This document shows positions 28,814 through 47,159 of a stretch of DNA of 64,000 bases, piece after piece; position 1 is the first letter of the stretch; every line of letters starts with the position of its first letter. Position numbers and translations under genes: made by a program. Source of the DNA: Podarcis liolepis (lineage: Eukaryota); NCBI GenBank assembly GCA_965112155.1, contig OZ218114.1; one strand, given 5' to 3'. The notes beneath the pieces were generated by a model. That model was given only the letters and a program-made list of their open reading frames with translations, made no database searches and was not told the origin of the DNA.

Positions 28814-30445
28814 GTTGTCCTCTGGAAAAGTGAGCCCCGAGAGCATCCGGACGCTCCGTCCCCCCTCTGAATCTTCCGATGACCAGGGCCCACCTGGCAA
28901 GCGGATGCTTAGCCCCAGCAAGGAGAAGGAGCTCTCCCTTTACAAGAAGACCAAGCGAGCCATCAGCAGCAAAAAGTACAGTGTTTCCAAGGCTGAGGCA
29001 GAAGCTGAGGCGACCACCCCCATCGAACTCATCAGCCGCGGGCCAGACGGCCGTTTTGTCATGGATCCTTCGGAGATGGAGCCCTCCCTCAAGACCCGCA
29101 GAATAGAGGGCTTCCCCTTTGTGGAGGAGACGGACATGTACCCGGAGTTCCGCCAGTCCGATGAAGAGAATGACGACCCTGTGATGCCTGCCTCTGTGAC
29201 AGCCCTCAAGTCCCAGCTGACTCCTCTCTCCTCCAGCCAGGAGTCTTACCTTCAGCCACCAGCATACAGCCCAAGGTTTCACCGGGGCCTGGAGGGGACG
29301 GGCACCATGGAGAGCCGCCTCCAAGCCACTGGCCAGGCCAGGCCTCCTGCCCCCAGGCCATTCCACCACGGCCCGTATTACGGTTACCTCAGCAGCAGCA
29401 GCCCCGGCGAGATGGACCCTCCGCCTTTCTACATGCCGGAGGTCAGCCCCCTCAGTTCTGTCATGTCCTCCCCTCCTCTGCACCCAGAGGGGCCTTTTGG
29501 TCATGCCACCATCCCTGAGGAGAACGGAGAGAACGCCTCCAACAGCACGCTGCCCCTGACCCAGACTCCGACGGGGGGCCGGTCCCCCGAGCCATGGGGC
29601 AGGGCCGAGTTCCCTTTCAGCGGCTTGGAATCGTCGCCCATCATGTTCCCCCACCAGCTCCACCAGTGCGAAATGGCCGAGAGCCTGCAGCCAAAGGCCA
29701 GTCTTCCTAGGGGACCACCACCTTCCTCGCTCCAGGTCCCCACATCCTACCCTGGCATCCTGGCCCTGGAGGCACCAAAGAGCTGGACTGGCAAGTCGCC
29801 AAGCAGAAGCCAACCTTCCATGCCCACCACCGCCAAATGGCAGGACAAACCTATGCAACCAATGGCGAGTCAAGGGCAGCTAAGACACACCAGTCAAGGC
29901 ATGGGCATACCTGTGTTGCCTTACCATGGGCCGTCCGAGTCAGTCAGCCACAGCGGCACAAGCACATTTGGCCTGGACACCAGGTGGTACGACCCCCAAC
30001 CCAGACCTCGGCCCAGCCCCCGGCAAGCCAGGAGGGCTGAGCCCAGTTTACATCAGGTGGTGCTACAACCTTCGAGGCTTTCCCCCCTGACCCAGAGCCC
30101 CCTCAGCTCCCGCACCAGCTCCCCAGAGCTAACGGCGCGGGCCAGGCCACGGCCGGGCCTCATCCACCAGGCGGAGATGTCTGAGATCACTCTGCAGCCT
30201 CCGGCAGCCGTCAGCTTCTCCCGCAAGTCCACCCCGTCAACAGGATCCCCTGCTCAGAGCAGCCGGGGAGGAAGCCCCAGCTTCCGGCCAGCCATGGCTT
30301 TCACTTCTCTGGCCACCGGCTATCCCCCCCCTCAGTGCCCTTCCCTGCCCGTGGAGCCCATAGACGTCTTCGGACAAATCCCCTCTCCAAGGAGGGGAGG
30401 GGAGGACATTCTTAGGCCGGAGCCGACACCAACAACCAGTTCGGG
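28814..30445 (+). CDS. IGSF9B: IGSF9B large Pro/Ser-rich cytoplasmic exon (LSSGKVSPESIRTLR...ELISRGPDGRFVM...PTTSSG)
   Basis: cacag|G TTG; 544-aa ORF 28815-30449; donor GG|gtaagt, phase 2; contains the IELISRGPDGRFV turtle-family motif. Confidence 0.96.
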
Positions 30446-31054
30446 GTAAGTGTGTGTGTGTGTGTGGACATTGCCTGCTTCCCCTCCCCCCCAGCCTCTC
30501 TCTCCCTCCCTGCCTCACCTGCTCCCATCCCTTCCCCACAACTTCTTCCCCTGCCACCATCACCTGAATCCATGTTGAGGCACGCTGCAGCAACTTTTTT
30601 GGAGATGGCCTCCAGCTGGGATTTCTAGTATTATTTCCCCCCTCCCTTCCCCAGTCAAGTTTTGCAGTGTTGGGCCACCCCCTGCCAATATCCATTACCC
30701 CCTCAGCATGGGCGATTAGATCCATAGGGTCCCTGGCCTTTGGGACTGTTGGGAATTGTGTACTGTTGGTTAGCTCAAGGGCTCTCCCTTTTCCTCCCCC
30801 ATCACAAGAAATAAAAATATTGAAGCTTTCATTTTTGTTTGGGAGTCACGTGTTGGGATGAAATGAAGAGGGTGTCCAAATGTCTAAAAACTGTAGGTTC
30901 AGGTGGTGTTTCTTTTCGCTTTGCAACTGGGTCAGCGAGCCCCAGATATTACCAGTATTTTCCTCTTCTAGTTCCTGGCTGTTTACTTTCCTGGGACATT
31001 AAGGCCTTGAGGCCCGCTCTTTGCCTTCTTCACATCCTTCTTTTACCCCCCGAG

Positions 31055-31195
31055 AGGGTTTGTCATCTTCCATGAACGAAACATGGCCGCACAAGCCGCC
31101 TTTTTCCACAACATCTCCAAAAGGGGTGCTGCAGCCCCACCCACAAGACTTGGGCGAGGCGAGAGAAACAAAGACATTAGCCACATGAACAGCTT
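31055..31195 (+). CDS. IGSF9B: Candidate frame-preserving cassette exon (GFVIFHERNMAAQAAFFHNISKRGAAAPPTRLGRGERNKDISHMNSL)
   Basis: Pyrimidine tract then ccgag|A; open frame; TT|gtaagg donor; 141 nt, phase 2-2 like the host intron. The GAG acceptor is atypical. Confidence 0.45.
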
Positions 31196-32052
31196 GTAAG
31201 GAGAGGACCAAAAAATTTAAAAAGTCAAAATCTACCCCAAACACACAGAAGTCAAATCAGGAAGCCGCCAGCACCCTCGGATCCTGTCCATGCAAGGGAT
31301 TGCAGCTGGCCAATTACCTCCAGCAGCTGGTTTTCCAGGTACCAGGGTTGCACCAGGCAAAGCGTCTTCTCTTTCTTTCCGTTTCTTCCTTCTCCTCCCC
31401 ACACCTCTGTCTTTCACACTAACTGTAGGTGCGTTCTCCTTCCATCCTTTTGTCTTTGTTGAAACAATTTTTTTGTTCTCCATGTAGTGGAGTTTGACTC
31501 CCCTTGCCCCTTCTCTTGATCCCCCAGCGTTGTGGAAATGAGTAGTGGTACCCTGCCCCCTGCCCAAATGGCTTGATGGAAACATGTGTAAATCAATTTG
31601 GATCAGGAGGGAGAAGTGACTCAACAGCAAGCAAGGAACAAAGGGTGGGCTGGTTAGACTGTGTGGTCGGCCTGGTATGTGATCCCAAGCAGTGGTTGTG
31701 GTAGGGTCATTGTAGAGCAAAGGTGTGAGACTTGAGTATAGCGTGGGAAGCTGGCTTTTCACCCCCTTGCCAAACATCCTTGCATTCTACCTATACTCTC
31801 TGGTACCTGGAAGCACTTAAGTCTTTGGAGACCCATTTAGCAAGGTTATTGGTTGCTGCTTCAGGATATTGGACCCAAGGGATAAGAGACATGTCTTTGC
31901 ACTAAACTGCTGAAGGGTGCTGTAAACGACTAGCAAAATGAAAGCAACCTCTGTTACTTTAAACCTATGCTTGTATAGACAATCTGAAACCTAATGGATC
32001 CAAGACTTCCACTTAAAGACCACATATGGGAACATATTAGGACACTCTCGAG

Positions 32053-46024: not shown

Positions 46025-46146
46025 AAAACGTCCATCTCCAACCCGGAACGCTGCTGCACCTGAGAGGCTCGAAGCTCTGAAATACCAGCGGATAAAGAAG
46101 CCCAAAAAGTCATCCAAGGGCTCCTCGAAATCCAAAAAACAAATCA
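46025..46146 (+). CDS. IGSF9B: IGSF9B penultimate coding exon (GKRPSPTRNAAAPERLEALKYQRIKKPKKSSKGSSKSKKQI)
   Basis: tttctag|A AAA ... ATC A|gtgagt; 122 nt, phase 2-1; matches the long IGSF9B isoform motif PERLEALKYQRIKKPKK. Confidence 0.92.
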
Positions 46147-46935
46147 GTGAGTGCGAGGAACACAAGACTCCCGGCTAATCGTCCCACCCCCCGCCCTGCC
46201 TGCCCCTTGCCACTTTGGGCCTGGCACAATACTCATTGAAGTCAATGACTTGTAATGAGAATTGATTCTGTCTCTGGGCCTAGAGAAAGTGTGCTACTCT
46301 GTCCTGTTTTTTCACCCGTTCACGGGATCTTCAGAAGTGAAAGGTTCCACCACCCACCCCACTGATATTTGCCTCCATCCCTTAAGCCAAAAGGTAGTTT
46401 CTAGCCCTTTTCACCTCCAGTTTGTATAGACCCTGAGCTGGTGTTCCCTACAGTTTTCCAGTGGATTTCTCGTTAAACTCAGCTCCTGTGTCTCTCATTT
46501 CCTTTTTCCTCCTACCCCAGTTCCTCAATAAACTCTCCTAACTCCTCCTCCTCCTCCTATTCTGCCCTCCTCTTGGTTACATCTTTATTTAAACAAAACC
46601 CTGCCTCGTTCCCAAGGATCATCCATCCTCTTGGCAATCCCATGAACATCTCACACCCTCTCTGCATAAAGCAAACCTTCCTACCCCAAAGCATTGCTTT
46701 TCTTTCCCCTGTTCTCCTACAATCACGCAACTTTTCATGTGCTAAAATAATACCTCTCTGCCTTGGTTATATTTTAAGTTGTGTACTGAACTTCTTTTTC
46801 CTACTTCTTTTTGTTGTTGGCTTAAAAAGAACAAAGAACAAAACAAAACTGCTGATTGCCTGTGCATCCCGCCATGATGCCTGTGCAAAATGCCTAACCA
46901 CCCTCTTCCTCTGCCCTTGTCACCTTCCTCCTCAG

Positions 46936-47159
46936 ATGGTTCTGCCTCCCAGGTTCAGCAACACCCTAACTCTCAGGTACTGTGGCCTGACGAAGCTGTC
47001 TGTCTCCGGAAGAAGAAGAGACATCCTCGCCAGGACCCCTTTGCCCGCCTCTCAGCACTGAAGGATGACCTCTGCCACCGGCAGGTTCCTGAGGACCAGA
47101 CAGCCATTCTCAACAGTGTGGACCATGATGATTCCAGTGGGCATGCAACCTTACTTTAG
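46936..47159 (+). CDS. IGSF9B: IGSF9B last coding exon (NGSASQVQQHPNSQVLWPDEAVCLRKKKRHPRQDPFARLSALKDDLCHRQVPEDQTAILNSVDHDDSSGHATLL*), ending in a class I PDZ-binding motif T-L-L
   Basis: ctcag|AT; stop TAG at 47157-47159; the ATLL terminus is typical of the IGSF9 family. Confidence 0.93.

Follow-up and report, generated by a model that had tools for sequence, protein, structure and literature searches.

The window analyzed here, a stretch of 64,000 nucleotides (nt) on one strand of contig OZ218114.1 (GCA_965112155.1) from Podarcis liolepis, carries in the region of interest the 3′ end of IGSF9B, with sequence of the wall-lizard type. The product of this gene, IgSF9b, is among the few adhesion proteins tied to inhibitory synapses, and its loss in the mouse alters inhibition and anxiety behavior. 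The searched part of the large cytoplasmic exon was 99% identical to "protein turtle homolog B" of Podarcis lilfordi, its top match, and an isoform of P. raffonei could be placed by tblastn as 12 exons in order, with 544 amino acids of the large exon matching at 99.4%. Orthology, the Ig/FN3 ectodomain, the large cytoplasmic exon, and the ...ATLL end all identify the gene as the IGSF9B orthologue. No Rfam family was found in 30400-50500, nor any Pfam family in three translated stretches of the window. An initial annotation of this DNA had proposed a C-terminal switchboard of five routes in and around the intron behind the large exon; every coordinate, phase, and translation that it gave was correct when the sequence was rechecked. 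The features on which our argument turns are these:

28815..30445 (start approximate within a few bases), plus strand: large cytoplasmic-domain exon of IGSF9B, with the phase-2 donor 30445/GTAAGT
30446..30842, plus strand: read-through extension with a TAA stop at 30447-30449, AATAAA at 30810-30815, and CA at 30830-30831, followed by T/GT-rich sequence; evidence from the sequence and from a contig of run X5
32801..32846, plus strand: 46-nt cassette exon encoding YLGSVVETSHSSAQ, the stop being its last codon; conserved in jawed vertebrates and a likely poison exon
46025..46146, plus strand: penultimate exon of 122 nt, phase 2 to phase 1; the default path agrees with the tails of proteins P0001 and P0002
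46936..47159, plus strand: last coding exon, ending in the PDZ-binding motif ...HATLL; a tail of this type ends 250 of 373 proteins

Along the default path, the donor at 30445 is joined to 46025-46146 and then to 46936-47159, giving ...HATLL. Beside this path there is an alternative-splicing module that is real, very old, and centered on one ultraconserved stop exon, 32801-32846. From the proposed switchboard, the 46-nt exon, which exceeds chance, and read-through of the donor, for which there are outside data, are retained; a 141-nt and a 51-nt exon, both scoring at chance level, are not. The intron is indeed in phase 2 at 30445, and it is true of the sequence that several elements inside it fit that phase. 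This fit is no evidence, however, because exons behind a phase-2 donor are always entered in phase 2. Phase-2 read-through would run into an immediate stop at 8 of 10 mapped IGSF9B donors, and of 994 stretches of 46 codons led by AG in the intron, 124 are open.

Sites in the intron (839 GT donors and 1005 acceptors) were ranked by a splice-site model for which 10 donors and 10 acceptors of this gene served as the training set, a small one, with the minus strand as control. The donor of the 46-nt exon (TAG/GTAAGG) ranked first of 839 and its acceptor 44th of 1005; no other donor passed on both sites, and the minus strand yielded none, so that among the candidates this exon stands far beyond chance. 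An acceptor at 32635, sharing the same donor, is stronger than that at 32801, and the resulting 212-nt pair was the top-scoring one in the intron by our first splice model; no isoform using it was in evidence. The upstream flank of the 46-nt exon is 73% pyrimidine and the downstream flank holds 17 GGG compared to 4.4 expected, figures given here without a statistical test; Rbfox, Nova, and QKI motifs were not enriched within 250 nt of the exon.

Evidence for the exon also comes from a census of 396 IGSF9B proteins, made up of the best 120 of 177 matches together with up to 15 listed members of each cluster queried; these are mostly automated annotations and form neither a random nor an independent sample. 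The distal large exon is reached by 373 of them, whose ends could be classified. Most end in the PDZ-type tail (250), followed by the peptide of the 46-nt exon (42 by a strict pattern; 45 of all 396 by a looser one) and the glycine at the donor (30). Smaller groups end in a mammalian alternative exon (8) or a fish and shark -TEV-type exon (8), skip the penultimate exon (6), read the 46-nt exon in another frame (3), use an acceptor at 30972 (2), or use part of the 46-nt exon in frame (1); 23 have other ends. The exon ending in TAG that was originally picked out from sequence is thus borne out by 45 of 396 proteins, by the top-ranked donor, and by a rat primer discussed below.

The peptide of this exon is constant in length, G (or S) and 14 residues followed by a stop. 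Proteins ending in it come from squamates (rattlesnake, Pogona, Anolis, Sceloporus, and Hemicordylus), from other amniotes (turtle, alligator, owl, platypus, primates, carnivores, and ungulates), and from axolotl, gar, sturgeon, bichir, teleosts, and three sharks. By this distribution of annotated isoforms, the age of the exon equals that of the jawed vertebrates, some 450 million years. In a search of the region with the stop-exon isoform of the rattlesnake as query, only 10 snake proteins were returned. The exon is also a true alternative, since isoforms including and skipping it are found within one species (Crotalus tigris X1-X3) and rat primers exist for both junction forms. In one teleost entry, Acnodon oligacanthus (P0085), only nine codons from the start of this exon are used in frame and the PDZ tail is kept, which suggests an internal donor in teleosts or an artifact of prediction.

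Constraint on the 46-nt exon looks as if it acts on nucleotides, because the peptide changes radically while silent positions stay fixed. Position 2 is L, H, or R, position 7 is E, V, or K, and position 10 is H, Y, F, L, S, or P. Third bases could be deduced where gene predictions read the exon in an alternative frame and so fix them: in two passerines 12 of 14 are forced to equal the lizard base, in the rattlesnake 13 of 14, and none is forced to differ. In the last exon, a rough control since it draws on species other than the test species, third bases forced to differ were 3 of 12 in a turtle, 2 of 8 in a caecilian, 7 of 19 in a whale, and 7 of 18 in the axolotl (25-39%). Together with a rat primer that matches the lizard exon at 20 of 20 bases, the third bases indicate conservation beyond what coding would need.

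That primer comes from a study in which Igsf9b was among the largest splicing changes in the rat spinal cord after nerve constriction (PMC13240960). This source, like the others cited below by PMC number, was accessible in part, and what we say of each refers to that part. The forward primer labeled "AS" is identical to window 32801-32820 (20/20 bases), the reverse primer maps to exon 46025-46146 (17/20), and the "model" primer spans the direct junction of the large and penultimate exons (PMC13240960). Given that the primers hit the exon, the penultimate exon, and the direct junction, the assayed event is inclusion versus skipping of the 46-nt exon. The accessible study thus treats it as a cassette joined to the penultimate exon, and the primer set presumably belongs to the event labeled Igsf9b.

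Two further routes would end in proteins without the PDZ tail. In one, the donor at 30445 is read through, and GGG TAA gives ...TSSG. This ending is correct as a reading of the sequence, and its support at the transcript level is modest, consisting of one contig in one of four runs. A polyadenylation signal follows, with AATAAA at 30810-30815, CA at 30830-30831, and then TTTTTGTTT; a hexamer within 400 nt would be expected by chance about 1 time in 5. Run X5 consists of Logan contigs of a related lizard and is RNA by guess only, as were 14 of the runs found for 28800-32900, none of which is listed on record as RNA. Its exon contig has seven unaligned letters after 30438 and so ends at 30445; the next contig covers 30416-30821, and their 30-base overlap puts a fork of the graph exactly on the donor. 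The depth is 6.6 for the read-through contig, compared to 8.8 for the exon contig, and the former ends six bases past AATAAA, with no coverage onward until a repeat near 32080. A fork at this base would point to a mix of spliced and unspliced RNA, and the GT repeat further on does not account for the fork. These observations favor intronic polyadenylation with a decay-resistant ...TSSG protein. Runs X20 and X22 (raw reads) contained next to no IGSF9B reads, and run X1 had no depth on the exon part, possibly due to filtering. The 30 proteins whose last residue is the glycine of the donor were not accepted as proof that read-through occurs; many of them stem from single-exon calls or from projections.

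The other route, missed by the initial annotation, is skipping of 46025-46146. It shifts the last exon to a frame ending in WFCLPGSATP, with loss of the PDZ tail. Annotated cases come from Pogona, two Anolis, two sea turtles, a caecilian, and a bichir (P0306). The skip form would be stable, because its stop sits in the last exon.

Between the donor and the 46-nt exon, and beyond it, lie four further features:

30972..31002, plus strand: alternative acceptor giving SWLFTFLGH and a stop after the large exon; RefSeq X3 isoforms of Zootoca vivipara (P0147) and Hemicordylus capensis (P0142)
31055..31195, plus strand: proposed 141-nt exon, open, with a GAG acceptor and the donor CTT/GTAAGG; unsupported as an in-frame exon
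31261..31338, plus strand: stretch ending at the donor CAG/GTACCA, sharing homology with the 3′ end of an alternative exon of mammals (tblastn, isoforms)
36413..36463, plus strand: proposed 51-nt exon that stops by either route; strong acceptor, weak donor, single copy

The acceptor at 30972 and the stretch at 31261-31338 had likewise been missed; the former opens another route that database isoforms support and that lacks the PDZ tail. Tails from rat, beaver, and crow match window 31268-31345 by tblastn, and in isoforms P0195, P0227, P0234, and P0240 the mammalian alternative exon is spliced to the 46-nt exon. The lizard acceptor for the stretch scores poorly. The sequence at 31070-31340 is single copy and homologous to bird DNA (summed E value of 3.6e-5, over three different lizard frames); no run covered 30972-31338, and this absence of contigs carries no weight. 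We think that there is probably an alternative exon near 31070-31340, as judged by homology, with borders and frame other than those first proposed.

The 141-nt exon itself had been claimed as frame preserving, and the 51-nt exon as part of the same switch. That both would also be regulated in lizards, completing the switchboard, now appears very improbable. Both do have AG..GT borders, the 141-nt stretch lies in DNA homologous to birds, decay-prone exons can be missing from protein databases, and the 51-nt acceptor ranks 4th of 1005 behind a 218-nt AG-free pyrimidine tract (36195-36412). GAG acceptors such as that of the 141-nt exon are rare, however; that acceptor does rank 23rd of 1005, whereas the donors of the two exons are weak (164th and 288th of 839), and a better donor than that at 36463 lies at 36484, giving a 72-nt exon. 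On both sites the 141-nt exon is equaled or beaten at 35 plus-strand and 44 minus-strand donors, and the summed score of the 51-nt exon is reached by 46 plus-strand compared to 39 minus-strand donors, so that the control strand yields as many equal candidates. A crow prediction over 31055-31195 matches three lizard frames, the homologous bird frame is broken twice in the lizard, and lizard annotation enters the region at 30972 instead. The 141-nt peptide had no homolog at E ≤ 10 among 113 candidates, in a weak search, and no 5-mer of either peptide occurred within the last 300 residues of any of the 396 proteins. Although 31055-31195 is single copy, with no coverage in four runs (weak evidence), neither a conserved frame nor a place in isoform databases was found for it. 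The scores of the 51-nt exon are like those of chance pseudo-exons, and a lizard-specific decay exon at 36413-36463 is unsupported but conceivable. Both candidates probably lie outside the splicing system.

Our best explanation, to which we give a probability of roughly 0.6, is therefore a 46-nt poison cassette causing decay, beside the two PDZ-less routes, with the 141-nt and 51-nt exons probably outside the system. The initial proposal that splicing of this intron picks among PDZ-tailed, PDZ-less, and decay-prone products holds in its core, without those two exons as parts. A switch resting on the 46-nt exon, on read-through with intronic polyadenylation, and on skipping of 46025-46146 is partly supported; that splicing would thereby tune scaffold coupling is an inference. 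The stop of the 46-nt exon lies 122 nt before the last junction when the message continues through 46025-46146, and 0 nt before it when the exon is joined directly to the last exon. The rule for nonsense-mediated decay (NMD) calls for a stop over 50 nt upstream of the final junction (PMC13187750), and on the route through 46025-46146 the distance exceeds the usual 50-55 nt. For an exon of fixed length and stop in jawed vertebrates, with a strong donor and, by primer design, a known splicing partner in the rat, we infer that decay would be the most likely outcome, because 122 nt exceeds the 50-nt rule; judged by sequence, decay of the message is probable. Inclusion of the exon would probably send IGSF9B message to NMD and leave less PDZ-tailed protein. 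If the 30445 donor is read through and the message polyadenylated near 30830, a decay-resistant ...TSSG protein lacking ...HATLL would result, and skipping of 46025-46146 would likewise give a decay-resistant protein without that tail. Such PDZ-less products would keep the ectodomain and are predicted not to bind S-SCAM/MAGI2.

Several points weigh against this explanation. The searched supplements of PMC13078869, PMC11188260, PMC13187750, and PMC8091538 did not show IGSF9B as a splicing event, the one match in the PMC13078869 supplement being in a gene-count table. No Igsf9b quantitative PCR result, direction, or interpretation was given in the accessible part of PMC13240960, and if the figure in that study concerns the 46-nt exon, the shift in inclusion can amount to at least 0.3, which is much for an efficiently destroyed message. 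The form including the exon is common in the steady-state annotation of many species, and in five species two or three transcripts are listed for one stop-exon protein, so that some routes behind the stop may escape decay. No lacertid entry with the exon was among those listed, the lizard reads examined cover 29900-32600, a stretch outside which the exon lies, and the third-base control is the rough one described above. Read-through was seen at low depth in one of four runs, and contigs cannot prove a transcript end.

Some of these points bear on a different reading, in which the 46-nt exon serves chiefly to produce a shorter, stable protein with the end ...SSAQ, without the PDZ motif, and acts as a switch of scaffold coupling and not as a dosage valve. 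Escape could come from intronic polyadenylation, direct joining to the last exon, or weak decay in neurons. Stop-exon isoforms are annotated as protein coding in many species, the core G-Y-x-G-S-V-V-x-T of the peptide is nearly fixed, the five species with multiple transcripts fit this reading, and skipping of 46025-46146 does occur in annotation. The ...SSAQ end is not a canonical PDZ ligand, as its last residue is not hydrophobic. Escape polyadenylation sites are frequent at poison exons (PMC13187750), and AATAAA occurs at 33200 and 33375, downstream of the exon. These hexamers, however, are at the background rate of the intron (0.15 per 250 nt), the rat primers join the exon to the penultimate exon, which is the decay-prone route, residue changes in the exon are radical while silent sites are fixed, and protein evidence for the ...SSAQ form was not seen. 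We consider a mainly stable product less likely than decay. Far less credible is selection of the exon as coding sequence in another frame (IWAVLSRQATPQLN), entered after an unrecognized frame-shifting exon, with the PDZ tail kept. The frame is open and nearly identical in a snake and birds (P0017, P0028, and P0040), and phase-1 entry would restore the frame of the next exon. But it is used in only 3 of 373 proteins, all gene predictions with unrelated upstream donors, no conserved upstream exon of suitable length was found, and the position-2 changes in shark and axolotl would remove the tryptophan of the IWAVLSRQATPQLN frame.

The census also contained forms that bear on the C terminus in other lineages. 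IGSF9B isoforms of tarpon, gar, sturgeon, bichirs, and horn shark (P0058, P0272, P0284, P0289, P0291, P0308, P0310, and P0315) have an alternative terminal exon behind the penultimate exon, ending in -STEV, -ATEV, or -ATKV. Because this is a class I PDZ-type motif, the tail in these fish and sharks is swapped, not lost; the exon is absent from the lizard window (best profile score of 12.6, compared to 56-76 for true members). Isoforms of about 890 amino acids in rattlesnake, reedfish, and zebra shark (P0228, P0303, and P0317) omit the large exon entirely yet retain the PDZ tail, which is another conserved choice in splicing, separate from the findings on the intron. Among skates and rays (P0328-P0331, P0334, P0337, and P0340), several entries stop at the donor or in exons specific to rays, and for some batoid species the PDZ-tailed form is absent among the entries listed.

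The intron also holds repeats. A perfect 594-nt inverted repeat (40283-40876 and 41048-41641, 171 nt apart) adjoins a stretch of N and could be a young insertion forming a long pre-mRNA hairpin or an assembly artifact; we take its translation to resemble the end of a Penelope-like retroelement, with no Pfam match. Short pieces of a high-copy repeat at 32084-32174 and 38869-39002 have very high depth in each of the four runs, and there is an inverted pair of 57 nt with related sequence.

How much the tail matters can be judged in part from published work. The link of IGSF9B to S-SCAM, cited in the initial annotation, is in print: the last 75 amino acids of IgSF9b as bait found MAGI-1, and full-length IgSF9b binds S-SCAM PDZ4-5, with no deletion test of the terminal motif seen in the accessible part of that paper (PMC3678166). 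By its sequence, a PDZ-less isoform is predicted to fail to bind S-SCAM/MAGI2. The paralog IgSF9 reportedly acts without its intracellular domain. S-SCAM has been described as the only known synaptic partner of IgSF9b, and S-SCAM puncta are unchanged in IgSF9b knockouts (PMC6302093). Together, the unchanged puncta and the behavior of the paralog temper the weight to be put on the tail.

Small alternative cassettes of this kind have precedents. Ultraconserved poison exons, which couple alternative splicing to NMD, are known in SR-protein genes, and neuronal examples include exon 20N of SCN1A and the unproductive splicing of SYNGAP1. The IGSF9B exon resembles these in its small size, in a stop lying over 50 nt ahead of the final junction, and in long-term conservation of its nucleotides. 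It differs in lying two exons from the end, in that decay is here deduced from sequence, and in that a message escaping decay would encode a near-full-length membrane protein minus its last ~110 residues and the PDZ motif. Another parallel is GluN1, in which splicing to C2 or C2′ selects the C-terminal PDZ ligand of a synaptic membrane protein. As there, alternative 3′ splicing of IGSF9B decides whether a PDZ tail is present; unlike GluN1, the lizard alternatives delete the motif, and a swap, to -S/A-T-E/K-V, appears only in fish and shark entries. Escape from NMD by intronic polyadenylation behind poison exons is described for VRK3, NFX1, TM2D3, and DDX31, and IGSF9B does not appear in the searched supplement of that study (PMC13187750). 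The IGSF9B stop exon similarly has possible polyadenylation sites downstream and a nearby read-through route with intronic polyadenylation; in contrast to those genes, its polyadenylation site with RNA-like support lies upstream of the stop exon, behind a constitutive donor.

Mouse variants 2 and 3 of IgSF9b are known (PMC3678166, Fig. S2). They, the human form ending in ...ALSKL (P0230), and RefSeq X3-X5 have shorter, PDZ-less C termini from the same donor, so that short PDZ-less variants are already in databases. A paper interpreting the stop exon was not found in the searchable literature. The accessible parts of PMC10511046 and PMC10839115 (the latter including a search of its supplement) held nothing on the isoforms discussed here. 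Searches for papers joining IGSF9B to intronic polyadenylation, to a poison exon, or to nonsense-mediated decay found none, most subscription papers lying outside the search, and with microexon only the rat study (PMC13240960).

One can tentatively envision, at clearly less than even odds, an unrecognized switch exon that dates back to the origin of jawed vertebrates, has hardly changed in DNA between lizard and rat, and responds to nerve injury, and that sets the amount of S-SCAM-coupled IgSF9b at inhibitory synapses, via decay or via release of a PDZ-less adhesion isoform. Retention of one length and one stop in sharks and mammals alike points to a selected regulatory step, as yet unexamined in the searchable functional literature. 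Antibodies and constructs may mix PDZ-tailed with PDZ-less isoforms. If the 46-nt exon acts as a poison exon, more full-length IgSF9b would be expected when it is blocked. The switch envisioned above would, if real, offer a control point, targetable by antisense, over a regulator of human inhibition.

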